DNA of 32,000 nt, taken from NCBI GenBank assembly GCA_964373795.1, contig CAYJVY010000005.1, positions 37,813-69,812 on the forward strand, in the 5' to 3' direction. The position numbers were made by a program, and so were the translations under genes. Under the pieces are notes generated by a model. The model was given only the letters and a program-made list of their open reading frames with translations. It was not told where the DNA came from and did no database searches. The stretch comes from an uncultured archaeon (GTDB taxonomy: Archaea > Iainarchaeota > Iainarchaeia > Iainarchaeales > DATDZZ01). This document shows, piece after piece, positions 6,795-32,000 of this stretch. Position 1 is the stretch's first letter; every line of letters begins with the position of its first letter.

Positions 6795-6816
6795 GAAATT
6801 AATGAGTGAAAACTAA

Positions 6817-9800
6817 ATGCCTTTAAACGAAGAATCTTTCATGGCTCCAGCTCCGGAAAATAAGTTACTTGAATTATTGAAAGAAAAAAAAATACTGATT
6901 GCAGGAGTAATAGCTGTAATTGTTTTAATTGCAGTAGCTTATTTTTTTGTCTTGCCTTTGCTTTCACAAAAAAATTCAAATGTAATTCTTTCATTAAAAG
7001 ATCAAGAAGGAACAATTCTTCCTTCAACAACTGTTTCAATTAAAGTTAATGAAACTGTAAAAAATTTTTCAAGCGATTTAAAAGGATTAATTCCTTTAAC
7101 TGTTCCATTGAATGCAAAAATAAGTGTTTCAGCTGAATTAGATGGATTTGAAAAAGTTAATCAAAGTTTGACTGCAAGCAATGCAGAAATGAGTAAAACA
7201 ATTACTTTTTACAAGATTTCAAAGCTTTTAAGTAAAACAATTGTTTTACAAAACCTTGCAGGAGAAATGATTAACAAGGAAGGGAAAATAAATTTTTCTT
7301 GCTCTAATTCAAAAATCACTGCACCTCAACCAATTGACACAACAACAAGTGGAGCAATTAGGGTTACGCCTCCAGAAGGATGTGGGGATTTAATTGCAGA
7401 AGTAATAGTGAAAGGATTTGCTTCAAAGGATTCAGTGAAAATAGTTAATGCAACTGAAGTAATAGAGTTAAGCGCTGAAAAACCTAAAACAGGAACTATA
7501 AAAATTTCAGTTAAAAACAAGGCTTCAGAAGCATTAAATGGAATTACTGTAAAACTTTTTGCAGACAGCGGAGTAATTAATTCAGTTATTTCAAACACAG
7601 GAATAGCAGAATTTAATGAAGTAGAAGTAGGAGAATACTTTGTTTTAACTGAATCAAATCCAGATTATGTTAGCGGGCGAACAGAAAAATTTCAAGTAAA
7701 AGAAAACGAAGTAACTGAAAAAAACTTAGTGTTAGAAAAAGAAAGAACTGCAACACTAGAATTTGAAGTAACAGATAAAAACAGTCAAGCAAAAATTTCA
7801 AACGCAAAAGTCAGAATTGAATTGCAAGAAAAAAAGTTTTTGGAAGAAAAAAATTCTGACAAAGACGGAAAAGTTGTATTCACTTTATTTGATGTAGGAA
7901 AATTTAAAGTAACTGTATTACATGAAGAATTTTTATTTGATGAAAAAGAAATTCAAGTCAACAAAGGCGAGAATAAGGAAAAAATTTCTTTAGAAAAGCT
8001 TTCCCCTGAAAACAGTGGAAGAGTCTTAGTTACAGTTAAAGATGAAGACAATGAAGTAGTGGAAAACGCTAGAGTAAATATTCTTGATGCGAAAACAAAG
8101 TTTTTGTATCCCTTGCCTAAGGTGTATTTCACTAATGCAGAAGGAAAAGTAGAGTTTTCAGGAGTAAAAGAAGGAAAATATTTTGTAAGAGTTTCAAAAG
8201 CAAGAACTGAAGCTGACTCAAAAGCATTAAATGTAAGCAAAAGAGGAATAACAGAATATGAAATAAAAATGGTTATAGGAGAAGGAGTTGTAAGCATTAA
8301 AGCAGTTGATGCAGATAAAGCTCCAGTGCCAAATGCTTCAGCTGAATTCTTTGATGAAAAAGGAAAATCTTTAGGAAAAATTGATTTAGGCCCAGAAGCT
8401 GAAAGAGATTTCACTACTAAAGCGGATAAAAAAGTTTTCATTCGAGTTTCTGCTTCAGGATATAGTAGTTATGTAACTTTATTACATGAAGTAATTCAAA
8501 ACAGAAAAATAAATGTTTTAGCTCAGTTAGAGAAAACAATTCAAGGAACAAAACCTTCAATTGATTTTATAGGATTATTTAATTCAACTGATTCAGATAA
8601 AAGAATTGAAAAACTTGAAGCAGGAAATGCTTATATTGCAAAATTCCAGTTAAAGATTCCAAAAGGATTAAAGCTAAAAAATGCAGGAGTCTTTGTTAAA
8701 ACAGGCGAGGATTCATTAGTTCAAAACGATAATATTTTCATTAAAGCAATTAATGCTCCAAACTCTTCAAAGATTAGGGGAACAACTTTTAACGAGCCAA
8801 AAGGATATGCAATTGATTCACAAAACTTAACTTCAGAAAACGCTAAATGGGTTCAAATAATTTTGCAAGACCCTGAAGAAGGAATTTACAATATTGCAGT
8901 AGAATTAAGTGTAAAAATTAGAACTGTTCCAGGGGAAAGACTTTCAATTAATTACAGAGCATTTGCTGAAAACGATGCAAGAGAAACTTTAAGAGATCCT
9001 GAAGACAAAGAATTAGGTTTAGCGGAAAACTCTGCAAACAAAGAAGGCTTGTATGCTAATGCAACTATTTTAACTTATTTAGAAGGACAAAAAGAGGAAT
9101 GCACTGAAGAATTTTGTTACGGAGGAGTAACATTAGAGGAATCAGTTTCAAGGCTTACTTTAAGACAACAGCCATTTGAAGTATTTGTTTTTTCAGAAAA
9201 CAAATTATTTTTCTATTTAATAAATAATTCTGCAAAAGATTATTTAGATCCAGAAATCAGGTTTAAAAGTTTGGATAAAGCAATTAAAATTACTTCATAT
9301 AAAATAACTGATGCTTCTGCAAAACAAGTAAGCAAAAACAATCAAGAATTATTTGAATTCAATGAAAAACTTGGAAACTTTTCCAAAAACAGAGCAATTA
9401 AAGGAGAAATTGATTTACAAGCACTTGACCCCGAAGAAAAAGAATTAAAGCTTCAAATAGTGAACAAAGGAAACATTGTTTTTGAAAGAGAAATAAAATT
9501 TAATGCAAAAGTTTCAAACAAATTAACTATTAAATCATCTCCAACATTTTTGCCTGCATTCAAGAAAAATGTTTTAAACGTTGAATTAATTGATGAACAA
9601 GAATTAGGTTTAAGTAATACTAAAGTGAAATTCAAATTAATTTCTCCTGAAAGAATTGAAAGATTCATTGGAAGTGAGTTAACAGACGGATTAGGAAAAG
9701 CTGTATTCAAAATAGGAAATTTAAGTCCTCAATCAAAACTCAAAATCGAAGTAGAAAAAGCAGGATATCAATTCACTCCAGTACTAGTTCCAGTGGAATT

Positions 9801-12800
9801 AGATTTAGTTGACATTACTCCTTCAGAGGTAAGCTTGGCTTTAGAGTCTTTAGGAATGAGAAGAAAAGAAAAAACAGTTGAAGCATTAAACAAAATTGAT
9901 TTACCTTTACAAATAACTGATGCAAGACTAATAGGAGTGTTTAGGCAAGTAGATGTAACTGCAATGGAAGGACATTTGAAAAACAATGTAGTAGGAAAAA
10001 TTCTCTCTCCAGGAATTCCAGAAAAAATCAAGCCATTAATTGAAGTAAGCATTTCAGAAGGATTACAAGAAGACTTAGAATCAGCTTCCTATGTTGGAGA
10101 AATTTTGTTAGTGTTTTCAAATAAAACAATTGGAAAGCAATGGCTGAAAAGAATTCCATTCAAATTAGATTTAGGTTTAGGAGGAGAAATAAATAATGCT
10201 CCATGTATTTTCTTTGATACTTCAGAAAAAATTGAAAAAACTATTTTACAGTCAAGCTTTGAAGAAAAATTCACTATAGTTAATAGATGTAAAAACACTG
10301 CAGGAAACAGTAAACTGCAAAACTTGAAAGCAAAAATTAATTGGACTGGAAAAGACGGGCCAATAGGAATAGTTTCATTAGAAGTAACTGAAACTGCAAC
10401 TCAAAACAAGGTATTCAATCCATTAATTGAAGGAGAAGAAATAATTTTTGCAGCTCCGTTTAGAAATGAAAGTGGATTAGATAGTTCAAGTTATTCAGCT
10501 ATTTTAAGTTTCACTCCAAATGAAGACACAATAAATAAAAAAGCAGAATTTCAAGTAGAGTTTTTCGGAGAAGCTTTAACAGATCAAGGAAAAGAAATTA
10601 TTAGATCAAAGCCAACTCCTTTAACAGTAAAGTTATTGAATACTAATTTACAGAACTGCATTAAATTTGATACAGAAGAACAAAGAGGAAGAGTTTTATT
10701 AAAACCAGATGCAAATGAAGCAATCTTTAAAGTCGATTCAAGTGAATGTAAAAACGTGGAATTAGAGTTAAAGATTTGTGGAGGAGACTCAGATAAATGC
10801 AGAGGAAACGCAGTAGATGGAGGAATAAAAGTTGCTCCATGGAGTTATGGAAAAATTTTAGAAAAAGAAGTTTCATTCAAGGTTTCCAGGCCAACAGTAG
10901 AATTTGTTCCAGGAATTTATGGAATTGAAGTATTTGCAAGACCTGTGCAAAAATCTGGCGGCACTCCTCCATGGCAATTAATAGGAGTAATTGATGCAAT
11001 TCTTGATGTAAAAAAAGAAGATACAGATAAATACCTGAATTTAGAAAAATATGAATTCACTTTAGTTAATCCAACGAAAAAAGATGAAACAGCTTTATTC
11101 AATGAAAGATTAATGGAAAATGTTGATGTAACAGCTGATTACTGTGCATGGGATAAAGCAAAAAGATATGCAAACACTTTTGTAAAAATAGGAGAATGGT
11201 TTGATGAATTAAACGAATCTCCTACTGGATGGATAATGTTTATTGCAGAAATAGGAATCGCAGCAATAGTAATCGATGTAGTTCTAGATTTATTAGATCA
11301 AATATTTGGAACTGATTGGGCTGACGGGTTTTCAAAAATCTTAGGAAAACTAGAAATATTAGATGACTGTGAAGACAGAGATCACACTGGAACACTTCAA
11401 GACTATGTATTAAATTTAGTGGAAAATGGAGGAAGTACAAAACTTGTTTCATTAGAGGGAAGAGTTAAATCAAAACCAGTTATAGGTCCAGCAGGAGAAG
11501 CAAGAATTTCAAGGCCAAATGATTTTCCATTAGAAAAACTTGGAATTGAATTGGAAAATAAATCTCTTGAAGAAGGATTAATTCATTACGATATTTTGGA
11601 AATAAGTGGAACAGAGCATGTAAGAGGAGCAAGGCCTTACAGTGGCGGTGCACATTTAAAGTGCAGAGATGGATTTGGTCCATTCAATGTTAGAGGAGCT
11701 TGTGGAGGTTATTCTACTCGCACTAAAACAGAAAAATTTCATGTAAGAATTAACACTATTTCTCCTACTCCAAAATTAAGAGAAATTAGATTAAATGAAA
11801 TTTCTTGTATTGGAGATGGAAAACAAGGAAAAACAGGAAAAGATGCTCTTCCAAAAGTAAAGTTAAACTGGAGCTGGGATGAAAAAACTCAAAACGGAAT
11901 TTCAATTAATGAATGCGATGCAAACAATGAAAAAGCAGTTTACTGTGATGCAACTCAGTTTTCAATAATGTTTGCAAAAAGATTGAATGCAATAAGTGAT
12001 TTTTTAGAGAAAAACAAAAATAATTTAACTTGCCCTACAGACAGTACTTCAAAAACTGAGGAAAAAAATAATTCAAAAAAAGAGTCAAAACCAGTATTTT
12101 TAACTAAAGAAAAATTCGGGGCAACAGAATTTGAAACAATCTTTAAAGGAGTGGAAAACAATTTAATTGTAAGAGTAAAATATGAAAACGATTTAAAACA
12201 AAAAATTGATTTAAATGCAGTTATAACTTTAAACAAATTAATTATTGAAGCAGGAGAAGAAAGAGAAGTAAGCAAGTGTAAAAAAGATTTAAGCGTTAAC
12301 TCAAAAGACTTTGGAGTAATTGAATGCCAATTCAATGACTTAGCAAAAGATGAATACTTTGTATCTCTTTCAACTGAATCGCAAAACAAAGCTGATTTAG
12401 ATGATTGGAATCCAAAAGAAAACATAATTGTAATAAGCGAGCCAACTAGATTGCAGGGATGCTGGCTTCCAAAAACAACTGCTCCTTTAGGAGGCGAACC
12501 AACTTTAATAAAATTCTTGGAAAACTCTTCAAACATTACTTATACTGCAGACATTAATTCAAAAGAACAATTAACTAACATGCTTCACTTTAATGCATTG
12601 CTAATGAGGGATGGCTTTTCAAGTGATTTCAGACAAGATTTTGTAAATTATTATAAAAACCAGTCTTTCATGAATGCCTATCCATGGTTTTTCAATAATA
12701 CTGGTGGAAGAAATATTGAAAAATATTTTTCAGATCAAGATAGAATGAGGTTTTCAAGAAAATACACTCCTTCAAATAAATTAGACAAGCCAGGAATTTA

Positions 12801-13839
12801 TGAAATTCAAATAAGCATATTATTTGACAATGAATGGAGTTTATTTACTAATTCAGGTAATCCAAATGCAAGAATTGGGGTTACATTTAATCACTTACAG
12901 TTACCAAAACCTAATTCAGTGCTTTACTCAATGCCTTTAAATGGATTTGTTGGAAAAGAAGGCCAAACATTGAATAGACAAGGATATGGAACTCAATTTG
13001 ATGTAGTGCAAGATGAAGTAAAATTATCTGAAGGATTTGAAATAGTGAAAACCTTGAAAGATTCTTCTAGTAGTGCGTTAACAAAAGTTAAAGTGGAAAG
13101 GAAAAACGATTTACAGTCTTTAAACACTAATCCAAAGTTTAGAGGAAACTTGTTAACAATAAATAAAGTAAATGAAAACGTGAATGAATTGCTTTTCTCT
13201 CCAAATTATGCTACTCCTGTTTTAATGAAGTTTAATCAAGACAAAACTGAAAAGCCTTTCACAATGCATTACGGAGTAACAGAAGGAACTCAATTAGTTA
13301 ACACTGGAGCAAATTTAACTTACTGGAATGCAGCAGTTAACTGCTTTGACTTTGGAGGAGAACCTTTAGTGAAAAGATTCAAAGTTGCTCCTGACAGAGC
13401 TTCAAAACCAGAAGATGGATTGCCAAACCATGAAAACATTTATGCATTGCAATGGTTGAAAGCAGTTAAAGGAGGAAATATTTTCTTGCAAACAATTTAC
13501 TTTGTTCCAACAATAGGAAATTATAATTTAAAAGCAGTTTCACCTCTTTCAAATATTTTATTTTACTCTCCAGAAAAACCTACTGGCTCGCAAACAATTG
13601 AGTTAAGCGGAATTAGTGGAATGAATTTAAACAGTAAAGGCAGAACAGAAGTAGTTGATTCCTTGCAAGACATTTTTTCATTAGTTGAATCAGGAGATGT
13701 ATGCGTTGGAAACAATGGTGAAAGCTTTTACTGGAATTCTCAAAAGCTTTACACTTTTAAAAACCCTCAAGCAAACATTATAGATATTAATTCAATTGCA
13801 TTCGAAAAAGAACAAAGAAAAGAATGCATTCTAAATTAA
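6817..13839 (+). CDS. Giant surface protein (2340 aa), paralog of the upstream ORF. It has an N-terminal signal-anchor helix, CarboxypepD_reg/PEGA-like repeats, conserved Cys pairs, and an internal hydrophobic segment.
   Basis: The ORF is a 7.0-kb open frame starting 22 nt after the previous stop. The N-terminus 'KKILIAGVIAVIVLIAVAYFFVLPLL' is a single hydrophobic anchor. At least four beta-sandwich repeats are visible (GTIKISVKNK..., ATLEFEVTDK..., GRVLVTVKDED..., GVVSIKAVDAD...). Conserved islands are shared with the first giant ORF (see that entry). Confidence 0.92.
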   Translation: MPLNEESFMAPAPENKLLELLKEKKILIAGVIAVIVLIAVAYFFVLPLLSQKNSNVILSLKDQEGTILPSTTVSIKVNETVKNFSSDLKGLIPLTVPLNAKISVSAELDGFEKVNQSLTASNAEMSKTITFYKISKLLSKTIVLQNLAGEMINKEGKINFSCSNSKITAPQPIDTTTSGAIRVTPPEGCGDLIAEVIVKGFASKDSVKIVNATEVIELSAEKPKTGTIKISVKNKASEALNGITVKLFADSGVINSVISNTGIAEFNEVEVGEYFVLTESNPDYVSGRTEKFQVKENEVTEKNLVLEKERTATLEFEVTDKNSQAKISNAKVRIELQEKKFLEEKNSDKDGKVVFTLFDVGKFKVTVLHEEFLFDEKEIQVNKGENKEKISLEKLSPENSGRVLVTVKDEDNEVVENARVNILDAKTKFLYPLPKVYFTNAEGKVEFSGVKEGKYFVRVSKARTEADSKALNVSKRGITEYEIKMVIGEGVVSIKAVDADKAPVPNASAEFFDEKGKSLGKIDLGPEAERDFTTKADKKVFIRVSASGYSSYVTLLHEVIQNRKINVLAQLEKTIQGTKPSIDFIGLFNSTDSDKRIEKLEAGNAYIAKFQLKIPKGLKLKNAGVFVKTGEDSLVQNDNIFIKAINAPNSSKIRGTTFNEPKGYAIDSQNLTSENAKWVQIILQDPEEGIYNIAVELSVKIRTVPGERLSINYRAFAENDARETLRDPEDKELGLAENSANKEGLYANATILTYLEGQKEECTEEFCYGGVTLEESVSRLTLRQQPFEVFVFSENKLFFYLINNSAKDYLDPEIRFKSLDKAIKITSYKITDASAKQVSKNNQELFEFNEKLGNFSKNRAIKGEIDLQALDPEEKELKLQIVNKGNIVFEREIKFNAKVSNKLTIKSSPTFLPAFKKNVLNVELIDEQELGLSNTKVKFKLISPERIERFIGSELTDGLGKAVFKIGNLSPQSKLKIEVEKAGYQFTPVLVPVELDLVDITPSEVSLALESLGMRRKEKTVEALNKIDLPLQITDARLIGVFRQVDVTAMEGHLKNNVVGKILSPGIPEKIKPLIEVSISEGLQEDLESASYVGEILLVFSNKTIGKQWLKRIPFKLDLGLGGEINNAPCIFFDTSEKIEKTILQSSFEEKFTIVNRCKNTAGNSKLQNLKAKINWTGKDGPIGIVSLEVTETATQNKVFNPLIEGEEIIFAAPFRNESGLDSSSYSAILSFTPNEDTINKKAEFQVEFFGEALTDQGKEIIRSKPTPLTVKLLNTNLQNCIKFDTEEQRGRVLLKPDANEAIFKVDSSECKNVELELKICGGDSDKCRGNAVDGGIKVAPWSYGKILEKEVSFKVSRPTVEFVPGIYGIEVFARPVQKSGGTPPWQLIGVIDAILDVKKEDTDKYLNLEKYEFTLVNPTKKDETALFNERLMENVDVTADYCAWDKAKRYANTFVKIGEWFDELNESPTGWIMFIAEIGIAAIVIDVVLDLLDQIFGTDWADGFSKILGKLEILDDCEDRDHTGTLQDYVLNLVENGGSTKLVSLEGRVKSKPVIGPAGEARISRPNDFPLEKLGIELENKSLEEGLIHYDILEISGTEHVRGARPYSGGAHLKCRDGFGPFNVRGACGGYSTRTKTEKFHVRINTISPTPKLREIRLNEISCIGDGKQGKTGKDALPKVKLNWSWDEKTQNGISINECDANNEKAVYCDATQFSIMFAKRLNAISDFLEKNKNNLTCPTDSTSKTEEKNNSKKESKPVFLTKEKFGATEFETIFKGVENNLIVRVKYENDLKQKIDLNAVITLNKLIIEAGEEREVSKCKKDLSVNSKDFGVIECQFNDLAKDEYFVSLSTESQNKADLDDWNPKENIIVISEPTRLQGCWLPKTTAPLGGEPTLIKFLENSSNITYTADINSKEQLTNMLHFNALLMRDGFSSDFRQDFVNYYKNQSFMNAYPWFFNNTGGRNIEKYFSDQDRMRFSRKYTPSNKLDKPGIYEIQISILFDNEWSLFTNSGNPNARIGVTFNHLQLPKPNSVLYSMPLNGFVGKEGQTLNRQGYGTQFDVVQDEVKLSEGFEIVKTLKDSSSSALTKVKVERKNDLQSLNTNPKFRGNLLTINKVNENVNELLFSPNYATPVLMKFNQDKTEKPFTMHYGVTEGTQLVNTGANLTYWNAAVNCFDFGGEPLVKRFKVAPDRASKPEDGLPNHENIYALQWLKAVKGGNIFLQTIYFVPTIGNYNLKAVSPLSNILFYSPEKPTGSQTIELSGISGMNLNSKGRTEVVDSLQDIFSLVESGDVCVGNNGESFYWNSQKLYTFKNPQANIIDINSIAFEKEQRKECILN

Positions 13840-13846
13840 ACTTTAC

Positions 13847-14242
13847 TCAAAACTTTATTCTTTTTATTTCAGAAACCCTATCAAAATCAGAGTCATCTGA
13901 AGCAATTTCTTTAATTTCACGTTCCTTCATTATTGCTACATGAAATGCATCTCTGGGTTTTAAGTTATATTTTTCAATAAAATCTAAAGCTGAAAAAGGA
14001 ATCATTGAATTTACTTCAATAATATCTGTATTAGGCAAAGAATAAATGTCTTGAATTGTTTCACGCAATAGAGAGTGTTTCTTGTTTTTAATGAGAACCC
14101 AAATTACTTCATCTAATACTAAAGCAGATGTTACTGCTTTTCTTCCTTGTATAATAGATTCTTGAAGTTTTCTTGCATTTCCACCTTTTTCAGTTAAATC
14201 AAAGTTTGCTAAAATAAAAAAATTTGCGTCTAAATAAATCAT
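13847..14242 (-). CDS. vapC: PIN-domain ribonuclease toxin (VapC family)
   Basis: The 131-aa product carries the PIN acidic signature: D5 in 'MIYLDAN', E in 'VLDEV', D in 'KPRDAFH', and 'SDDSDFD' near the C-terminus. It overlaps the upstream antitoxin gene by 4 nt, as is typical for toxin-antitoxin coupling. Confidence 0.85.
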   Translation of the reverse strand: MIYLDANFFILANFDLTEKGGNARKLQESIIQGRKAVTSALVLDEVIWVLIKNKKHSLLRETIQDIYSLPNTDIIEVNSMIPFSALDFIEKYNLKPRDAFHVAIMKEREIKEIASDDSDFDRVSEIKRIKF

Positions 14243-14490
14243 CTAAATTCCTCTTCATAAAGTTTGTCGCCATAAATCCATCCAAGTTTCTTAAGGTTTC
14301 CGCCATGCTTTTTTGCTCGTTCAGCCCATTTTTTAACTAAATCATCAGATACCAAAGGATGAATTTCAAGAATGTGTTCTTTAACTTCCATTAAAACATT
14401 TCCAGATTCTTTTATTCCAAGACTTTCTCTAATAATTTTTGGAATAACTACTTGCCCTTTTGGGCCAACTCTAGTTTTAAATCTAACCAT
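14239..14490 (-). CDS. vapB: AbrB/SpoVT-type antitoxin (VapB family)
   Basis: The 83-aa product has the N-terminal swapped-hairpin motif 'VGPKGQVVIPKIIRESLGIKESGNVLMEV'. It overlaps the PIN gene by 4 nt. A TATA-like 'tatatatagtgg' (minus-strand reading) lies about 20-30 nt upstream at 14511-14521. Two palindromic aacgtt hexamers at 14533-14538 and 14546-14551 could be an operator. Confidence 0.85.
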   Translation of the reverse strand: MVRFKTRVGPKGQVVIPKIIRESLGIKESGNVLMEVKEHILEIHPLVSDDLVKKWAERAKKHGGNLKKLGWIYGDKLYEEEFR

Positions 14491-15975: not shown

Positions 15976-16305
15976 TTGAATTTAGTAGTACTTCTATTAC
16001 TTTTTTTAGCATTTCTTTACTTGATTTCAGTCAATGAAGTTTTTCTGGCAATTGTTCTTGCAATATTGGGAATTGTATTAATTCTTTTCCCAAAAGGAGT
16101 TCAAGAAGAAATAAAACTAGTAAGTGAAGCAAAAGGAAGTTATCCAGACAAAGAAATCTTTTTAGAAGCCGCGCATAACTTAAACAAGCATTTAATGAAT
16201 ATTGGAACTCCAAAACAAAGATATGGAGAAAAAAGCAATTTAACTGAATTAATGCCTGACAACATTAACTATTTTTTCAAGCAATTAAGAAAATTATTCA
16301 AGTAA
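15976..16305 (+). CDS. Small membrane-anchored protein (109 aa, about 2 N-terminal TM helices plus a soluble basic C-terminal domain), with a TTG start abutting the previous stop
   Basis: The TTG at 15976 immediately follows the TAA at 15973-15975. There is no in-frame ATG until late in the ORF. The N-terminus is LVVLLLLFLAFLYLISV / FLAIVLAILGIVLILF. The start-codon assignment is uncertain. Confidence 0.55.
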   Translation: MNLVVLLLLFLAFLYLISVNEVFLAIVLAILGIVLILFPKGVQEEIKLVSEAKGSYPDKEIFLEAAHNLNKHLMNIGTPKQRYGEKSNLTELMPDNINYFFKQLRKLFK

Positions 16306-16340
16306 GCTTTTCTTCCGACGTTTCGCTCGTCGAACGCGAC
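16305..16340 (+). repeat. Short GC-rich repeat copy A: terminal 'agcttttctt' plus a hairpin, homologous to the left end of copy D
   Basis: 'agcttttcttccgacgtttcgctcgtcgaacgcgac' compares with 27705-27740 'agcttttctttcgacgtttcgcgcgtcgaacgcaac', differing at only 3 positions. The hairpin has arms 16314-16320 and 16328-16334. The copy sits exactly between the stops of two convergent genes. Confidence 0.8.
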
Positions 16341-16858: not shown

Positions 16859-16953
16859 TTAACTCACTCAAAGCATAATTTTATGCCGGTATTTGACAAC
16901 GGCGAAAGCTTAATTATTTATATTATTAACACTATATATAGTTTACTTTTGAT

Positions 16954-17070
16954 TCAGCCTCGCGGTCACGCGCCTTGAACGCGCAAGGTCTCGTGCGTCG
17001 ACACGAGGGCCTGCATAGGCCTTCAGCTTCGCCGGCTGATCGCTTCAGCTTCGCCTGATGAACGGTGGTG
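16954..17070 (+). repeat. GC-rich mosaic repeat copy B, a chain of at least 4 short hairpins
   Basis: Hairpins are cgcg/gtca/cgcg (16961-16972), ccttg/aacgcg/caagg (16973-16988), ctcgtg/cgtcga/cacgag (16990-17007) and ggcct/gcat/aggcc (17008-17021). These are followed by a direct duplication of 'cttcagcttcgcc' at 17021 and 17043. Copy B shares 'gtctcgtgcgtcga' and the core 'cagcttcgccggctg' with copy D, and 'cgccttga.cgcg' with copy C. Confidence 0.8.
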
Positions 17071-17078
17071 GAAAAAAA

Positions 17079-18587
17079 ATGCATTTATTTAATTTAAGAA
17101 ACGGTCCTTGGGAAATTCTTTTCGAAGGAACTCTTCATAGCCTTGAAACAGGAATTTACACTAATTCAAGAAAAGATTTTTTAATAATTATTTTAGACAA
17201 AGAAGGGCATGCAATTAAAGGCGCGTTAACCCAGTTTTACACTGTTTTTTTAGTTGAAGGAGAAATAGATTCATTAATTCAGGAAAAGGAAAGCATTGCG
17301 TTAATTAGAAGTGAAGGATTTGAAAAACACAAATTTCTTTTAATTCCAAGTTCATCTGAATACATTGCTTGGAAGGAAAAAGAATTCATTGAAAAAACAA
17401 GTCAAATGTTTAAAGAATTAGAAGAATTAAAAGAAAAAACAAAGGAAACAGCAAAAAAATTAAAATTAAATGCTGTAAGCTTGAATGAATGCAAAACAGA
17501 AGTAAAAGAAGGATTCTTAAATCAACCATTGCTTGCTCCGTTAATTTCTTCTCAATTAAAAGAAAAAGAAACATCAAATGAAATTAAAATAGAGAAATCT
17601 TTAAGTGGAGAAGTAATTCTTGGCTTGAATAGAGAAAATATTTTAATTTCAGAACCTTTTTCATTATTTAAAAAAACAATTGCTTCAGGAAATGAGGACT
17701 TGAATAGAATTCATTTACTTCATGTATTAATTGAAGGACTATTGCTTTCAAACATTGACTGCATTGCATTTGAATTTGAAGAAAAATTTAAAGGATTAGA
17801 TACTCCTACAAGCAAGTTAAATGAATTAAAAGCAAGCAAAATTGAAATAGAGCCAATAGGTTTTCCAGTGAAAAAATTTCAAGCAAAACAAGAAATAAAA
17901 GTTGACTTGAATTTATTAAAAGCTGAATCTTTAATGGATTTATTTGGAGTAACAGATAAAGAATTAATTGAATTTCTTGAAGCAAGGTTAAGAGAAAAAG
18001 AACACACAGATTTACAAGAATTCATTCAAACACTGAAAGAAAGCTTGCCTTCAACTGAAGTAAACCAGTATCAAATAAACAAAGTTATTAGAATATTCAA
18101 GTTAATTGACTCTAAATATCCTAGAATGCTTGGAGGCGCAAACCCAATTCAAGAAATCACTAAAAGCTGGTTAAAAGAAATAGGCAAAATATCAATAATT
18201 GATTTACAAGAAGTAAAAGATGAAAAAGAAAAACTTTTATTTATAACAAACATAGTTAAAGGAATTCTTGAATCGCAAAAAGAGATTACAATTAAAAGCA
18301 AGTTAAAGTTAATGCTTTTTATTCCAAATTCATTTGAATTAATTGGAAAAGAAAAAAACAATGAAATGAGTAAAGAATTAATTGAATTATTAATGCAAGC
18401 AGAAAAACATGGAATTGGATTTGTATTAGAAACAAATCAAAAAACTGATTTAAAAGACGAAGTAGTTGAACAAATGGAATCAGAATTAACCCTTGTTAGC
18501 GGAATTGATTTAGGAGTAAGCCTTCCAGGAAAAACTCATTACAGAATAAAAGTAAGGCCAACTCTTTCAAAACAAGTAGACGAATAA
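17079..18587 (+). CDS. Hypothetical protein (about 502 aa). It may have a HerA/FtsK-type (DUF87-like) P-loop NTPase fold with degenerate Walker A/B motifs.
   Basis: I prefer the ATG at 17079 (MHLFNLRNG...) over the track start at 17058, because 17058-17078 lies inside the GC-rich repeat. The layout resembles HerA/DUF87. 'EVILGLNRENILISEPFSLFKKTIASGNEDLNRIHLLHVLIEGLL' sits where GxxGSGKS would be. 'GKISIIDLQEVKDEKEKLLF' and 'KLMLFIPNSFELI' sit where hhhhDEAH would be. 'AEKHGIGFVLETNQKTDLKDEVVEQMESELTL' sits where EGRKyGvgl..sQrPs.l...vlsq would be. This is pattern recognition only. Coding status is solid; the family call is tentative. Confidence 0.6.
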   Translation: MHLFNLRNGPWEILFEGTLHSLETGIYTNSRKDFLIIILDKEGHAIKGALTQFYTVFLVEGEIDSLIQEKESIALIRSEGFEKHKFLLIPSSSEYIAWKEKEFIEKTSQMFKELEELKEKTKETAKKLKLNAVSLNECKTEVKEGFLNQPLLAPLISSQLKEKETSNEIKIEKSLSGEVILGLNRENILISEPFSLFKKTIASGNEDLNRIHLLHVLIEGLLLSNIDCIAFEFEEKFKGLDTPTSKLNELKASKIEIEPIGFPVKKFQAKQEIKVDLNLLKAESLMDLFGVTDKELIEFLEARLREKEHTDLQEFIQTLKESLPSTEVNQYQINKVIRIFKLIDSKYPRMLGGANPIQEITKSWLKEIGKISIIDLQEVKDEKEKLLFITNIVKGILESQKEITIKSKLKLMLFIPNSFELIGKEKNNEMSKELIELLMQAEKHGIGFVLETNQKTDLKDEVVEQMESELTLVSGIDLGVSLPGKTHYRIKVRPTLSKQVDE

Positions 18588-18598
18588 TGCCAAATGAA

Positions 18599-19039
18599 TT
18601 ATTTTTTCTTTTTTACAGAAGAAGTTTTTCCGCTTCCCTCTTTAAGCATTTCATCAATGATTTCTTTCACATCTTCTCTTGTAACAAACTTGTTTGGCCC
18701 AATAAAGTCAACCAGTTTTTTGACTTCAACAAATTCATCTTTTTTAGTATAATTACTCCAAATCAATGCCAGTTTTTCATTAACCTCATTTAAAGAATTA
18801 TTAATTCTATCTAATTGAAGCTTTAAATCAGCTGGAACATCTTGCCTTCCACCTGAAAGCTGTCTATTCAAGTCATCCCTTAACTCAATTAATTTCTTGT
18901 TAAAGGCAAGGCTTTTAGTTAAAAGCAATTTATCGTTATAAGAAAAATGCCTAAGCCTTTGAGTAATTAAATCAATTGAAGTATTCAAATGCTCAATGTT
19001 TTGCCTTATTTGATCTAAAACATTTGGTTGAGTAGGCAT
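18599..19039 (-). CDS. Hypothetical coiled-coil protein (146 aa) with a Lys-rich C-terminal tail
   Basis: I prefer the ATG at 19039 (MPTQPNVLDQIRQNIEHL...). The track start at 19123 adds 28 codons (MPTWALSFAGCSAKES...) that merely translate the GC-rich repeat; the same peptide string appears from the repeat at 27778-27819. Confidence 0.65.
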   Translation of the reverse strand: MPTQPNVLDQIRQNIEHLNTSIDLITQRLRHFSYNDKLLLTKSLAFNKKLIELRDDLNRQLSGGRQDVPADLKLQLDRINNSLNEVNEKLALIWSNYTKKDEFVEVKKLVDFIGPNKFVTREDVKEIIDEMLKEGSGKTSSVKKKK

Positions 19040-19080
19040 AAAATCATAACTATAAAGGCAATTGAAACTTAAAAAACTTT

Positions 19081-19276
19081 CTTTCGCCGAGCAGCCGGCG
19101 AAGCTGAGTGCCCACGTGGGCATTGCGCTTGCCGCGCGAGAAGGTTCAAGGTTCAGCCCTTGAAGCGCCGAACAGCCGGCGAGGCTGAGTCGAAAGCCGG
19201 CGAAGCTGAGTGCTCAAGTGAGCATCGGCTCAACCGACCGAACGGTTCGCGCTCAAGGCGAGTAAGCGCACCGCGG
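19081..19276 (-). repeat. GC-rich mosaic repeat copy C, the largest copy. It contains three copies of the 17-nt core and two palindromes, and is inverted relative to copies B and D.
   Basis: The core 'cagccggcga[ag]gctgag' occurs at 19092-19108 and 19173-19189, with a partial copy at 19195-19210. Palindromes are tgcccacgtgggca (19109-19122) and tgctcaagtgagca (19211-19224). The reverse complement of 19081-19123 matches 27778-27820 with 1 mismatch over about 38 nt. The reverse complement of about 19141-19170 matches 27811-27835 ('cggcgcttcaagg.ctgaaccttg'). Confidence 0.85.
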
Positions 19277-19289
19277 TTTATAAAAATAT
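19276..19289 (+). promoter_or_regulatory. Putative TATA box/promoter of polB
   Basis: 'tttataaaaatatt' lies about 21-34 nt upstream of the ATG at 19310, immediately after the GC-rich element. The spacing suggests a leaderless or very short-leader mRNA. Confidence 0.4.
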
Positions 19290-22897: not shown

Positions 22898-22919
22898 TTT
22901 TCTTTTTAAGAAAAGTTGT

Positions 22920-22993
22920 GCCCCTATAGTATAGCCTGGATAGAATGCAAGCTTGCGGAGCTTGAGACCTGGGTTCAAATCCCAGTAGGGGCG
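22920..22993 (+). tRNA. tRNA-Arg (anticodon GCG)
   Basis: The acceptor gcccta../..taggggc forms 7 perfect bp (22920-26 with 22986-92). The anticodon stem caagc/gcttg closes the loop ttGCGga. The T arm is ctggg-ttcaaat-cccag. The D loop agcctggata is canonical, but the D stem is weak (gtat/gaat: 1 Watson-Crick pair, 2 G-U pairs and 1 mismatch). A T-run follows at 22994-22999. Confidence 0.8.
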
Positions 22994-23664
22994 TTTTTTA
23001 AATTCATTGCTTCCAATATTTGTTCAAACTCTTTTCTAGAAATTTCGCAGAGTTCTTCGTCTTTGAATAAAACAATTCCTTTTATTGGAATTTCAGGCCA
23101 GAATTCTTCAAATTCTTGCTCGCGCAAGGAATCAAAGTATTCAGCATTTTCCTTGAAATGCTTTTCTTGTTCTTCTTTCCAGCCTTCTTTGAATTTTCCT
23201 GTTTTTTGCAAGCCAACACAGAAAGGATAAATTTTTGAAAAATCTTTTACATCTTTAAGTGAAATAAATGGGAAAAGCTCGCATTGCTTTGGCCTTGCAG
23301 AATAAATCTTGCAAGCCTTGTTTGCTTCATCTAAGTGAATGCATGCTTTTTCATTTCTTTGCAAGGCAAGCATTGGTAAAACCTTTAAATGCTGTGGCAA
23401 AAAACCTGTTTTTGCTTGCAAGGCCGCAGCAACTGTTTTTGGAAGAAAAGAATTAAATAAAACATTTTTTTCTTCCTGAAACTCTGATGGAAATAATTGC
23501 AAGTAAATCACGCAAAATTTTTGAATGAACTCCTTTAAAGGGATTTGAAGAAAACTTGCTTGCTTTTTTGCTTCTGCAGGAGTTAAAGCAATCCAGTAAC
23601 GTTTACAGCATTCTAAACATCTCTGGCAAACAAATTTTTCTACCTGCATTAAAGAATTTGCCAT
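22975..23664 (-). CDS. Putative zinc/iron-chelating CxxCxxCC protein (YkgJ/UPF0153-like)
   Basis: The 229-aa product has the N-terminal motif 'CQRCLECCKRYW' (C-x2-C-x2-CC) plus later Cys residues (CIHLDEANKACKIY, CELFPF, PFCVG), as in the UPF0153 family. The last 6 codons overlap the 3' end of tRNA-Arg on the opposite strand. Confidence 0.7.
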   Translation of the reverse strand: MANSLMQVEKFVCQRCLECCKRYWIALTPAEAKKQASFLQIPLKEFIQKFCVIYLQLFPSEFQEEKNVLFNSFLPKTVAAALQAKTGFLPQHLKVLPMLALQRNEKACIHLDEANKACKIYSARPKQCELFPFISLKDVKDFSKIYPFCVGLQKTGKFKEGWKEEQEKHFKENAEYFDSLREQEFEEFWPEIPIKGIVLFKDEELCEISRKEFEQILEAMNLKNAPTGI

Positions 23665-25860: not shown

Positions 25861-25879
25861 AGTGTATTTGGTGGTTTTT

Positions 25880-26113
25880 ATGCCGAATATGACTTTGTCA
25901 ATTCCAGACCAAGTGCAGAAAAAAATGTCAAAACATTCTGAGGTCAAATGGAGCAATGTTGCTAGGGAAGCAATTGAGAAAAAGGTTGAAGAACTTGAAT
26001 GGATGGATAAAATTTTGAGCAAAAGCAAGCTTACTGAAGAAGATGCTGAAAGAATTGGCCATGAAATAAAAGCAATTATTTCAAAGCGCTGGGCAAAAAG
26101 GTTTGGAGAATGA
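25880..26113 (+). CDS. Ribbon-helix-helix (CopG-like) antitoxin
   Basis: I prefer the ATG at 25880 (MPNMTLSIPDQVQKKMSKHSEVKWSNVAREAIEKKVEELE) over the GTG at 25862. 'TLSIPD...' forms the beta strand and is followed by two helices, as expected for RHH. The gene overlaps the downstream PIN gene with a 4-nt ATGA. Confidence 0.75.
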   Translation: MPNMTLSIPDQVQKKMSKHSEVKWSNVAREAIEKKVEELEWMDKILSKSKLTEEDAERIGHEIKAIISKRWAKRFGE

Positions 26114-26523
26114 AGCTTACAATTGACACATCAATAATAATGGCCGCAATTATTAAGAATTCAACTACAAGAAAGCTTGTTGTTAGTTCAATGTTTGAGT
26201 TGTATACTCCTGATGCATTAAGTGAAGAAATTGGGAAATATAAAAACTATATAATGAAAAAAGCAAATCTTGATGAAAGCAAATTTATTGAACTTCTCCA
26301 GAAGCTTTCCAAGAATATACTTATACTAGATAAGTTTAGTGTTTCTCCTAAGAATTATGAAAAAGCTTTCAAGGCATTGAGTAAAATTGATTTAGGTTAT
26401 GTTCCAATGCTGGCAGTGGCACTTGAAACAGGCTCAAGTATTTGGAGCAACGACAACCATTTCAAAAAACAAAAATTAGTAAAAGTTTTCACTACTTCAC
26501 AATTGACAAGAATCTATTTTTAG
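26110..26523 (+). CDS. PIN-domain protein (VapC-like toxin)
   Basis: The 137-aa product has 'KLTIDTSIIMAAI' (the first acidic residue), 'LSEEI', and the C-terminal 'IWSNDNHF', typical of PIN nucleases. It is translationally coupled to the RHH gene. Confidence 0.75.
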   Translation: MKLTIDTSIIMAAIIKNSTTRKLVVSSMFELYTPDALSEEIGKYKNYIMKKANLDESKFIELLQKLSKNILILDKFSVSPKNYEKAFKALSKIDLGYVPMLAVALETGSSIWSNDNHFKKQKLVKVFTTSQLTRIYF

Positions 26524-27629: not shown

Positions 27630-27702
27630 GGCTAGTGTAGTGTAACGGTTAGCATATGAGGCTGTGGCCCTCCTGGACCGAGTCCGACTCTCGGCACTGG
27701 CC
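27630..27702 (+). tRNA. tRNA-His (anticodon GTG) with a genome-encoded G-1
   Basis: G-1 (27630) lies opposite the discriminator C73 (27702), which is the His identity pair. The acceptor gctagtg/cactggc forms 7 bp including one G-U. The D arm is gtgt-aacggtta-gcat. The anticodon loop is ctGTGgc on a 4-bp stem plus a mismatch. The T stem ccgag/ctcgg closes the loop tccgact, which has C instead of U at position 55. CCA is not encoded. Confidence 0.8.
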
Positions 27703-27862
27703 TCAGCTTTTCTTTCGACGTTTCGCGCGTCGAACGCAACAGCCTTGCCGGCTGCGACGTCTCGTGCGTCGAGCGCGATGCCCACGTGGGCACTCAGCCT
27801 CGCCGGCTGCTCGGCGCTTCAAGGACTGAACCTTGCGCGGCTGAACGGCGAAGAAAAGCTGG
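27703..27862 (+). repeat. GC-rich mosaic repeat copy D, closed by an 11-bp terminal inverted repeat and starting 1-2 nt after tRNA-His
   Basis: The terminal inverted repeat is cagcttttctt (27704-27714) with aagaaaagctg (27851-27861). The internal hairpin ttcgacg/cgtcgaa spans 27714-27734. Other elements are 'gtctcgtgcgtcga', the palindrome tgcccacgtgggca (27779-27792), the core ctcagcctcgccggctg (27793-27809) and caagg/ccttg. Hand counts give 40/60 and 42/60 G+C for lines 27721-27780 and 27781-27840. Confidence 0.85.
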
Positions 27863-27967
27863 CAAAAGAAAAAAGTAAAAAGTACAAGTTACAAAAATAA
27901 ATGAAATGCAAAGCATTTCATATGCTCAGCTTTATGCTGTGCACGTACTCAAGGGACGTGACCTTGT

Positions 27968-29206
27968 ATGGTTGAATTGAAAACTCCTAGAGGAATGAGA
28001 GATTTTTTGCCTGAAAAAGCAAGAAAAAAACAGTTCTTGCAAGACTTGATTAGACAAGAATTTGAATTATTTGGATTTGAACCATTAGAAACTCCAGTAG
28101 TAGAAGAATACTCTGTTTTAAGTGGAAAAGCAGGAGAAGAAATTAAAAAAGAAATTTATTATTTTAAAGATCAAGGCGAACGAGAACTAGGGTTAAGGTT
28201 TGATTTAACTGTTCCATTAGCAAGAGTTGTTGCTTCAAACCCTGATCTTATAAAGCCTTTCAAGCGCTACCAAATTGGAACAGTTTATAGATATGATAAA
28301 CCTCAAGCTCAGAGATACAGGGAATTCACTCAAGCAGATATTGACATTATTGGCCCAAATTCTGTGTATGTGGATTTTGAAATTTTGCAGTGTGCTTTGA
28401 ATATAATGAAAAAACTTGGAACTGAATTTTATATCAGGCTAAATAATAGAATGCTTTTAGAAGAAGTTGCAAAATCTTCTGGAATTAGCCAGGAAAAAGT
28501 TGTTGATGCTTTTAGGTCTATTGACAAATTGGACAAAATAGGCTGGGAAGGAGTTGAAAAAGAATTCAAACAGAAAAAAATTCCAGGCAAAATTTTGGAA
28601 CTAGTTAAAGAGAATGATTTAAAGAAAGTTGAAAAGCTTTTGAAAGAAAATAAAAACTTTAAACAATTGCAGGAATTGCTTGGATTGTTTGGCGAGGATG
28701 CAAAGTTTGTAAAAATTGATTTAGGCCTTGCCCGAGGTTTAGAGTATTATACAGGCAATGTATTTGAAGTAATTGTTTCTTCTGGAAAATGGACTGTTGC
28801 AGCAGGAGGAAGATATGATAATTTGGTTAGTGTTTTTGGTGGGCAAAAAACTCCTGGAATTGGAATAAGTTTTGGCGTCGACCGTTTATTGGATGTTTTG
28901 GATTCTGAGGGAAAGCTTTCCTTGCAAACTAAAACAAAGTTTTTTTTCCTGCCAATTGGAGAAAAAGTTTTGCAGGAAAGCCTTGAATTAGTTCAACAAA
29001 TTCGCGGCATTGGATTAAATTGTGAAATGGATTTAATGCAAAGAGGGATTTCAAAAAACCTTGAATATGCTTCAAAGAAAAAAATTCCTTTCGTGCTGAT
29101 TTTTGGAGACAATGAAGCAAAAGAAAAAATTCTCACACTACGAGACATGCAAACAGGGAAACAAGAAAAAATAAAATTAACAGAATTGGAGAAATTGAAA
29201 AAATAG
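27968..29206 (+). CDS. hisS: Histidyl-tRNA synthetase (class IIa)
   Basis: 'PRGMRDFLP' is at the N-terminus. Motif 2 is 'YRYDKPQAQRYREFTQADIDIIG'. Also present are 'GLEYYTG' and 'AAGGRYDNL', and motif 3 is 'GIGISFGVDRL'. A C-terminal anticodon-binding domain follows. Confidence 0.95.
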   Translation: MVELKTPRGMRDFLPEKARKKQFLQDLIRQEFELFGFEPLETPVVEEYSVLSGKAGEEIKKEIYYFKDQGERELGLRFDLTVPLARVVASNPDLIKPFKRYQIGTVYRYDKPQAQRYREFTQADIDIIGPNSVYVDFEILQCALNIMKKLGTEFYIRLNNRMLLEEVAKSSGISQEKVVDAFRSIDKLDKIGWEGVEKEFKQKKIPGKILELVKENDLKKVEKLLKENKNFKQLQELLGLFGEDAKFVKIDLGLARGLEYYTGNVFEVIVSSGKWTVAAGGRYDNLVSVFGGQKTPGIGISFGVDRLLDVLDSEGKLSLQTKTKFFFLPIGEKVLQESLELVQQIRGIGLNCEMDLMQRGISKNLEYASKKKIPFVLIFGDNEAKEKILTLRDMQTGKQEKIKLTELEKLKK

Positions 29207-30065: not shown

Positions 30066-30153
30066 GCCTCTGTAGCTTAGTGGTTGGAGCACGCCCTTGG
30101 TATGCAAATGCACTATAAGGGTGAGGCCGGGAGTTCAAATCTCCCCAGAGGCT
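30066..30153 (+). tRNA. tRNA-Thr (anticodon GGT) with a 15-nt intron at the canonical 37/38 position (30103-30117)
   Basis: The acceptor gcctctg/cagaggc forms 7 perfect bp. The D arm is gctt-agtggttg-gagc. The anticodon stem cgccc (30092-96) pairs with gggtg (30119-23). The 22 nt between them give the 7-nt loop ttGGTa+a plus the intron tgcaaatgcactata. The T arm is gggag-ttcaaat-ctccc. The mature length is 73 nt. I did not verify the bulge-helix-bulge geometry. Confidence 0.78.
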
Positions 30154-31895: not shown

Positions 31896-32000
31896 ATAAA
31901 ATTCGTTCAGCGAACTAAACTGCATGCGGAAAGTATTTTTAATACTTATTCTACGAATTTTTTTATCAAGCAATTTTTTATATCCATGCAAGCATTCAGC

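Follow-up and report, generated by a model that had tools for sequence, protein, structure and literature searches.

The 32,000-nucleotide stretch analyzed here (the window; contig CAYJVY010000005.1, positions 37,813 to 69,812, from assembly GCA_964373795.1 of an uncultured archaeon) carries four G+C-rich, hairpin-forming blocks between its genes, designated E1 to E4. [quoted passage not shown] This reading is based on their repetition at high identity, their strictly intergenic location and the empty orthologous sites in relatives; on strand-symmetric hairpins with compensatory change and a variable number of units; and on the terminal inverted repeats of E4, the solo end represented by E1 and a probable decayed copy. 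Most likely, the blocks belong to a familiar class of element, in a form private to this lineage, and do not represent a new type of gene.

Four related G+C-rich blocks in A+T-rich DNA

The window has a G+C content of 31.3%, and six stretches in it reach at least 60% G+C in 40-nt windows. Three of the six are tRNA-associated or trivial; the others lie at 16945-17072, 19074-19282 and 27645-27863, the last beginning with tRNA-His. Hairpin modules occupy four intergenic sites (listed below), confirming the four related G+C-rich sites proposed in an earlier, sequence-only reading of this DNA. That reading put their G+C content at 67-70%, which is too high: it is 64-65% in E2, E3 and E4 and 56% in E1 (16305-16340). 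The blocks are 36-200 nt long, differ in their number of units and are non-coding, with no genuine open reading frame (ORF).

The most frequent shared module is a 17-nt core, CTCAGCYTCGCCGGCTG. At least six copies had been claimed, and with up to 3 mismatches the window holds 7: four on the + strand (17022, 17044, 27738, 27793) and three on the - strand (19092, 19173, 19194). Dinucleotide shuffles lead one to expect 0.01. The other shared strings, including the 14-nt palindrome and the ttcgacg/cgtcgaa hairpin, were all found where they had been placed. TGCCCACGTGGGCA is present at 19109 and 27779, GTCTCGTGCGTCGA at 16988 and 27759, and CGGCGCTTCAAGGNCTGAACCTTG at 27812 (+) and 19147 (-); TTCGACG/CGTCGAA arms lie at 27714/27728, with a further CGTCGAA at 16328. 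Identity between sites is 93-96% across 33-45 nt. The closest match, between the reverse complement of 19081-19123 and 27778-27820, was described as having one mismatch, which holds over the first 39 nt, while the full 43 nt contain 5 mismatches. Motif, model and similarity searches of the window revealed no element-related sequence in its coding DNA, as had been proposed. The repetition is real and clearly above chance. The family can be described by the patterns CTCAGCYTCGCCGGCTG, AGCTTTTCTTYCGACG and TGCNCANNTGNGCA and by a covariance model (R1) of the P and core hairpins defined below.

Anatomy of the units

The copies were oriented so that the core reads CTCAGCYTCGCCGGCTG and were aligned with MAFFT. 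In place of the shuffled modules described previously, the alignment gives one conserved, colinear order: a left terminus (AGCTTTTCTTYCG), an HL hairpin (ttcgacg-N7-cgtcgaa) or its paralogue V (cgacg-TCTCGTG-cgtcg), a P hairpin (TGCCCA-CG-TGGGCA), a core hairpin (CAGCC-TCGCC-GGCTG), an optional T hairpin (CAAGG-ACTGAA-CCTTG) and an A-rich right terminus (CGGCGAAGAAAAGCT). Units are arrayed head-to-tail, one to three per array, and the cores within any one element all have the same orientation. The copies and their parts are as follows.

E1, 16305..16340, + strand: solo unit, left terminus AGCTTTTCTT and HL hairpin (cgacg-TTTCGCT-cgtcg); 33/36 identical to 27705-27737
E2, 16954..17071, + strand: X, V (ctcgtg/cacgag), P'' (ggcct/aggcc), core, degenerate core, TGAACGGTGGTGG end
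E3, 19077..19276, - strand: on that strand X, P'-core, core-T, V''-P-core, CGGCGAAAGAAAG end (X and three partial units)
E4, 27704..27861, + strand: left terminal repeat, HL, core', V, P, core, T, right terminal repeat
Core hairpin CAGCC-TCGCC-GGCTG, 27793..27809, + strand: exact copy
Other cores, + strand: 17022-17038; 17044-17060, degenerate; 27738-27754, variant
Other cores, - strand: 19092-19108, 19173-19189, 19194-19210
P hairpin, 27779..27792, no strand assigned: perfect palindrome TGCCCACGTGGGCA, identical at 19109-19122
P paralogues: 19211-19224, TGCTCAAGTGAGCA; 17008-17021, GGCCTGCATAGGCC
Candidate A+T-decayed core-T unit, 27925..27966, + strand: ctcagctttatgctg...tcaagggacgtgaccttg, ending right before the hisS start codon
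tRNA-His (GTG), 27630..27704, + strand: 3' end abuts E4; context, not part of the repeat

The most complete copy is E4, which has two units and is located between tRNA-His and hisS. At its ends is a terminal inverted repeat, perfect over 11 bp (CAGCTTTTCTT/AAGAAAAGCTG), that extends imperfectly to about 20 bp and had not been reported earlier. Elsewhere the terminal repeats are incomplete, with E1 having the left end only and E2 and E3 a related right end only.

Beside E4, the segment at 27925-27966 is the top match to the E2 X module in the whole masked window (score 27; next 22; background 10.9 +/- 2.2), and it shares the top score with others when the masked window is matched to the core-T unit. 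With low to moderate confidence, it may be read as a core-T unit decayed toward A+T. Near E2, about 45 nt upstream at 16900-16911, CGGCGAAAGCTT resembles the right terminus CGGCGAAGAAAAGCT (p ~0.04) and may be a remnant of another insertion, a weakly supported identification.

Hairpins are maintained on both strands

That nearly all modules are self-complementary, as had been claimed, is borne out by stem content. Perfect stems of at least 5 bp include 40-47% of the bases in E2, E3 and E4 versus 9-14% in dinucleotide shuffles (p < 0.01); for E1 alone (37 nt as tested) the enrichment is not significant. In an alignment of four P-core units, with pairs counted on the two-hairpin structure, 97.7% of cells are paired, including every P-stem cell, versus 23-43% once partners are shifted by 1-3 columns. 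Compensatory double changes occur in three of the six P-stem pairs (TA to GC once, CG to TA twice). Each copy's V region also folds into a hairpin, in a register that differs: cgacg/cgtcg in E4, ctcgtg/cacgag in E2 and, as read from the sequence, gcgc/gcgc in E3. Hairpin potential is maintained.

As RNA, the two strands fold about equally well (-94.9 and -89.6 kcal/mol for E3, -81.1 and -84.3 for E4, -47.1 and -47.2 for E2). The z-scores are also equal on both strands, and E2 folds no better than its shuffles (z -0.7 and -1.0). This equality points to local DNA palindromy and not to a single RNA fold of one strand. Strand-asymmetric folding was considered as evidence for an RNA, and none was found; the sole strand-specific hint is that core variants with T form G-U pairs on the core strand alone.

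The blocks are authentic

Junctions between flank and block were recovered in the Logan assemblies of three runs (ERR3478686, ERR4904390 and ERR4904391) and in the source metagenome-assembled genome (MAG). One Logan contig (L001) contains 165 nt of E3, the block upstream of polB, and starts inside it at 19112. Two others, from two runs (L120 and L121), contain tRNA-His and the first 97 nt of E4, and both stop at 27801. Three more (L122-L124) cross the 36-nt E1, enter E2 and stop at 17047 or 17055. The contigs thus break inside the elements near the P/core module, and in the best-covered run all three recovered contigs end at an element or at tRNA-Arg. As no 31-mer is common to different copies within the window, the breaks suit a repeat-induced branching of the assembly graph, and they are consistent with further copies elsewhere in the genome.

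Two observations concern other contig ends. L126 (ERR4904391; 1588-1593) ends at the last base of the window (31995-32000) on ...CATTCAGC; the 6 nt visible there, TTCAGC, are the start of the core and of the left end of E2. Judging from these letters, a fifth copy at the window end possibly broke both assemblies. In ERR3478686, a 24-nt gap (22914-22937) around the 5' end of tRNA-Arg (22919-22994) separates the ends of L001 and L120; the 3' end of an ORF for a CxxCxxCC-domain protein (22975-23664, -) overlaps this tRNA.

An assembly chimera or misassembly joining foreign high-G+C DNA to the contig, a concern raised with the sequence-only reading, would account for a composition twice the genome average and for contigs that tend to break within the blocks. 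It is refuted by the junctions with the A+T-rich flanks, which are identical in the MAG and the three independent Logan assemblies and exclude chimerism. The same modules also recur at four sites, and no extended match to any high-G+C genome was obtained, 20-mer matches stopping at the pattern. The probability left to a chimera is practically nil.

Orthologous sites in relatives are empty

PolB places the organism among the DPANN archaea, the named matches being Candidatus Diapherotrites, Micrarchaeota and Iainarchaeum. The closest PolB homologue is 59% identical, and the PolBs of the related contigs are 57-59% identical. Gene order is kept in four related contigs (L115, L116, L118 and L119): a giant surface protein, small genes, a 170-aa gene (-), a 500-aa HerA-like gene, a 160-aa gene (-), PolB and an M24 peptidase. 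The corresponding intergenic regions compare as follows.

polB-upstream region: 76-110 bp and 20-31% G+C in relatives; 270 bp in the window, 74 bp without E3
HerA-like-upstream region: 133-164 bp in relatives; 221 bp in the window
Convergent gap: 3-20 bp in relatives; 37 bp in the window, entirely E1
tRNA-His to hisS: 6 bp in L116; 263 bp in the window

The extra intergenic length in the window is about the length of the elements. In the relatives' contigs there is no core-like motif with up to 4 mismatches and no match to the P-core covariance model. Given that the relatives' syntenic intergenic regions are short, A+T-rich and free of elements, the blocks appear, by this sequence comparison, to be lineage-specific additions.

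tRNA-His (GTG) lies directly upstream of hisS both in the window (27630-29206) and in L116 (17259-18610), so that in this archaeal clade the tRNA and its synthetase may form a conserved unit of co-transcription; the order in L119 is tRNA, racemase, hisS. A 91-nt 'tRNA-???' whose anticodon has 4 bases (gtgg), called by ARAGORN in L118 and L119, is probably an intron-containing tRNA-His.

Position relative to genes and expression signals

The N-termini of orthologues set the start of the HerA-like gene at 17079 and that of the 146-aa gene at 19039. ORF calls at 18599-19123 (-; MPTWALSFAGCSAKESF...) and 17058-18587 (+; MNGGGKK...) run into the elements and are overextended, because the P module carries an ATG and the G+C-rich DNA has no stop codons. 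E1 occupies the entire gap separating two convergent stop codons. E3 fills precisely the interval from the TATA-like box of the divergent 146-aa gene (19068-19076) to that of polB (19277-19288); polB, with its ATG 33 nt away from where its box starts, probably stays leaderless and unaffected by E3. In front of the HerA-like gene, whose true start codon is at 17079, E2 occupies the space that follows the sole TATA-like box (16933-16940) and ends in GGTGGTGG, 7 nt before the ATG. From this arrangement, E2 should form a leader of about 115 nt on the HerA-like mRNA. E4 begins with a T-tract straight after tRNA-His, and E1 begins with the same T-tract straight after a stop codon. With the core written as CTCAGCYTCGCC, E2, E3 and E4 are co-oriented with the gene just downstream. 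That the elements spare promoters and ORFs is as expected from filtered random insertion; a role as leaders or terminators is also compatible with it.

Searches for known families

Rfam searches at the gathering score and at E up to 5 passed tRNAs only, with a single noise match (E = 4.2) overlapping the elements, and so reject RNase P, the signal recognition particle RNA and known small-RNA families. A C/D-box small RNA was also rejected, as the CTGA and TGATGA strings are in the wrong order and spacing and lack Rfam support. So was a split-tRNA or trans-splicing leader of the Nanoarchaeum kind, as tRNA-His is complete. A terminator scan around E1-E3 returned no terminator-like site, which is weak evidence for an archaeon as the model is bacterial. 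A replication origin with origin recognition box (ORB) repeats near polB and the HerA-like gene was considered and rejected: the copies lie in four unrelated gaps, one between convergent stop codons, and no ORB-like motif was seen. No cdc6/orc1 gene was found among the window ORFs scanned against Pfam and NCBIfam, a set that omits both giant ORFs and several small ones.

In genome-collection contigs, TCAGCYTCGCCGGCTGNTCG has at least 113 matches; those listed are all in DNA of more than 56% G+C, occur singly per site and do not extend beyond the 20-mer, so they are uninformative on the presence of the family elsewhere. The core and its flank (CTCAGCCTCGCCGGCTGCTCG) translate to L-S-L-A-G-C-S, which is lipobox-like. 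This likeness probably explains many of the unrelated exact 20-mer matches in high-G+C bacteria, several of which appear to be lipobox-coding.

Other features of the window

Two adjacent giant ORFs (>2262 aa and 2340 aa; window 6-13839) have repeated segments resembling Ig-like or CarboxypepD_reg domains and are followed by five genes of about 100 aa. This block is syntenic in relatives (L115 1-5406, L116 1-5408), precedes the HerA-like ATPase and may be a surface or adhesion apparatus. There are two toxin-antitoxin pairs, a PIN protein with a MazE-like antitoxin (13847-14490, -) and an RHH protein with PIN_2 (25862-26523, +); the PIN/MazE-like pair is missing at the syntenic position in relatives. 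An 88-nt tRNA at 30066-30153 (+), scoring 54.5 bits with Rfam and missed by ARAGORN, probably contains an intron.

How the elements may spread

Under the selfish-repeat reading, units would have been inserted at the DNA level into tiny A+T-rich intergenic regions, and arrays would have grown head-to-tail by adjacent insertion, unequal recombination or slippage. Propagation would most likely depend on an enzyme whose gene is elsewhere in the genome, for instance a transposase or nuclease, that recognizes the hairpins as cruciform or single-stranded DNA. Only insertions sparing core promoters and ORFs would have survived. As a by-product, the elements would probably be transcribed: as the 5' leader of about 115 nt of the HerA-like gene, as the spacer between tRNA-His and hisS and as a 3' trailer between convergent genes. 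Those transcribed may act as passive RNA stabilizers or terminators.

Several observations weigh against such mobile repeats. The sites are few and clustered, all four lying within 12 kb. The relatives are distant (PolB 57-59%), so that empty sites indicate gain in this lineage or loss elsewhere and not recent mobility. Contig breaks may instead reflect trouble with Illumina coverage or errors at G+C-rich hairpins. None of the ORFs of the 32-kb window scanned against Pfam and NCBIfam encodes a transposase, integrase, HUH, RAYT (REP-associated tyrosine transposase) or nuclease protein. No matches were obtained in JGI metagenomes with ACTCAGCYTCGCCGGCTGNTCGGCG and TTCTTYCGACGTTTCGCNCGTCGAA, in IMG/VR viral contigs with four patterns, or by blastn of E4 against plasmids and of E3 against phages. 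The six-frame peptides of the elements matched nothing at E <= 10 among 5.8 billion proteins. Read directly, the junctions of the four sites display no direct repeat that could be a target-site duplication, and the four left junctions share no common target (flanks ...AGTA, ...TTGAT, ...ATAAA and ...GCCTC). The G+C content of the elements is twice that of the host, unlike that of prokaryotic MITEs, which normally tracks the host (PMC11602168). Lastly, the shared orientation of E2, E3 and E4 with the downstream gene is what a functional leader would predict too.

If the elements are mobile, they would be an archaeal parasite similar to REPs or GC clusters and would offer a test of convergent origin in A+T-rich genomes. 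DPANN genomes are tiny and gene-dense, and here the polB-upstream region has more than tripled (74 to 270 bp). A G+C content twice that of the genome has to be explained, whether by the recency of the invasion, by selection for stable hairpins or by a strong drive such as transposition or biased conversion. One insertion has apparently given a probably leaderless gene a structured leader of about 115 nt, a natural experiment in expression. There are practical consequences as well: the elements break short-read assemblies, the ATG of an element extends neighboring ORF calls (MPTWALSFAGCS...), and a core that mimics lipobox-coding sequence gives false DNA matches in high-G+C bacteria.

Alternative explanations

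The blocks could instead be selected cis-acting structured RNAs, serving as leaders, spacers and trailers that set stability, termination or translation for the HerA-like ATPase, the 146-aa protein and hisS. This is possible but doubtful. The three long copies point with the downstream gene, and by their position just past a TATA-like box or a tRNA each would be transcribed; 3/3 co-orientation nevertheless has a chance probability of about 0.125, and E3, between two divergent TATA-like boxes, is outside both predicted mRNAs. E2 would be in the HerA-like mRNA if 16933-16940 is the promoter, its GGTGGTGG end resembling a Shine-Dalgarno sequence 7 nt before the ATG, yet the orthologous genes in the four related contigs have no such leader. 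The left end AGCTTTTCTT places a T-tract just after tRNA-His and just after a stop codon, as a terminator might, although the bacterial-model scan of E1-E3 detected no intrinsic-terminator-like site. Compensatory changes in the P stem and the core variants with Y = T, which give G-U pairs on this strand alone, would suit an RNA. Against a single conserved RNA structure, the register of the V hairpin differs in each copy; the two strands do not differ in folding energy or z-score, E2 (z -0.7, -1.0) is no better than its shuffles, and even at E up to 5 Rfam gives no match. Independent small non-coding RNA genes, forming a paralogous family with high G+C content like tRNAs, are still harder to credit and have a very low probability. 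Their G+C content of 64-65% is similar to that of the window's tRNAs, and TATA-like boxes abut E2 and E3. However, the copies lack consistent 5' and 3' ends as well as a terminator, vary in length (36 to 200 nt) and in unit number, match no Rfam family and are absent from relatives.

The strand-symmetric folding is compatible with recognition of double-stranded DNA, and the blocks might be arrays for a sequence-specific protein (a nucleoid, insulator, partition or regulatory protein) that binds CACGTG or GCCGGC in replication and repair promoters. The perfect dyads TGCCCACGTGGGCA and the GCCGGC in every core would provide the sites, and two blocks are in divergent promoter regions near polB and the HerA-like gene. 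What makes this improbable is that the P palindrome changes in sequence while keeping its symmetry, so that structure is conserved and not a fixed site. Moreover, two copies occupy places that are not regulatory, one of them following a tRNA and the other separating convergent stop codons; relatives with the same gene order lack such sites, and no candidate binding protein was identified.

Comparison with known systems

No description of such elements was found in the DPANN literature, in agreement with the sequence-only reading, although MITEs in general are already catalogued there (PMC11602168). MITE G+C content normally tracks that of the host genome, and MITEs have been counted in DPANN (PMC11602168). 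The elements are MITE-like in being non-coding, 36-200 nt long and intergenic, in the terminal inverted repeats of E4 and in their presumed mobilization in trans. They differ from MITEs in that their ends vary between copies, the array structure is variable and no target-site duplication is present. They do not fit an IS200/IS605-derived palindrome-associated element either: such elements insert 3' of a fixed 4-5 nt target and have subterminal hairpins in place of terminal inverted repeats, whereas here there is no fixed target and E4 has terminal inverted repeats.

The analogy with REPs, BIMEs and GC clusters drawn in the earlier reading stands at the level of working and organization; membership of the REP family does not. 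REPs have conserved GTAG (or CGTC) tetranucleotides at one end of the palindrome, CGTC REPs have 8-9 bp stems with 4-5 nt loops, and the hosts listed in a REP survey belong to bacterial phyla only (PMC3733652). Like REPs and BIMEs, the elements are short, G+C-rich imperfect palindromes, intergenic only and single or clustered, whose stems are kept by compensatory change; their hairpins measure 14-21 nt with 5-7 bp stems and lie outside genes. REPs, imperfect palindromes of 20-40 nt that also form REPINs, are numerous across their genomes, are often co-transcribed as 3' or 5' untranslated hairpins and are mobilized by RAYTs, IS200/IS605-type Y1 transposases whose genes the repeats flank. In contrast to REPs, no GTAG occurs in or within 5 nt of any element, and CGTC is found only inside the 3' arm of the HL and V hairpins (5-7 bp stems, 7-nt loops), not at a terminus. 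The units are head-to-tail and not alternating, the window encodes no RAYT among its scanned ORFs and the host is archaeal. Lacking the GTAG or terminal CGTC tag and the alternating orientation, the elements were rejected as REP family members.

Other bacterial repeats have a comparable build. The BOX elements of pneumococci, the STAR elements of Staphylococcus aureus and the Rickettsia palindromic elements are modular, have variable internal units, form hairpins and are restricted to a lineage. STAR elements are G+C-rich repeats in a low-G+C genome. The elements described here are strictly intergenic in the window, unlike Rickettsia palindromic elements, which are found inserted in-frame within genes as well; no sequence similarity to any of these bacterial repeats is expected.

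Yeast mitochondrial GC clusters are nearly all intergenic, occur singly or in tandem, consist of palindromic modules that merge and have no dedicated transposase known; one of them, GC42, is associated with an AG target-site duplication (PMC4478555). The genome in the present case is that of an archaeal cell and not of an organelle, and the AG duplication is not seen at the element junctions. A full archaeal counterpart of GC clusters, with hairpin modules that spread without a dedicated transposase and are co-opted as expression signals, seems unlikely. Biased gene conversion or hairpin-templated repair are examples of how such modules could spread. In a DPANN genome that is ultra-compact and largely leaderless, the co-opted parts would be the T-tract terminators that follow tRNAs and genes, the structured 5' leaders with a Shine-Dalgarno-like end and the purine-rich ends near TATA boxes that resemble transcription factor B recognition elements (BREs). 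The comparison with GC clusters is one of organization: in both cases, G+C-rich, constrained hairpins lie between the genes of an A+T-rich genome as single units and as tandem arrays. In how they would work, the elements of this archaeon may be likened above all to yeast mitochondrial GC clusters, ahead of REPs, BIMEs and MITEs.

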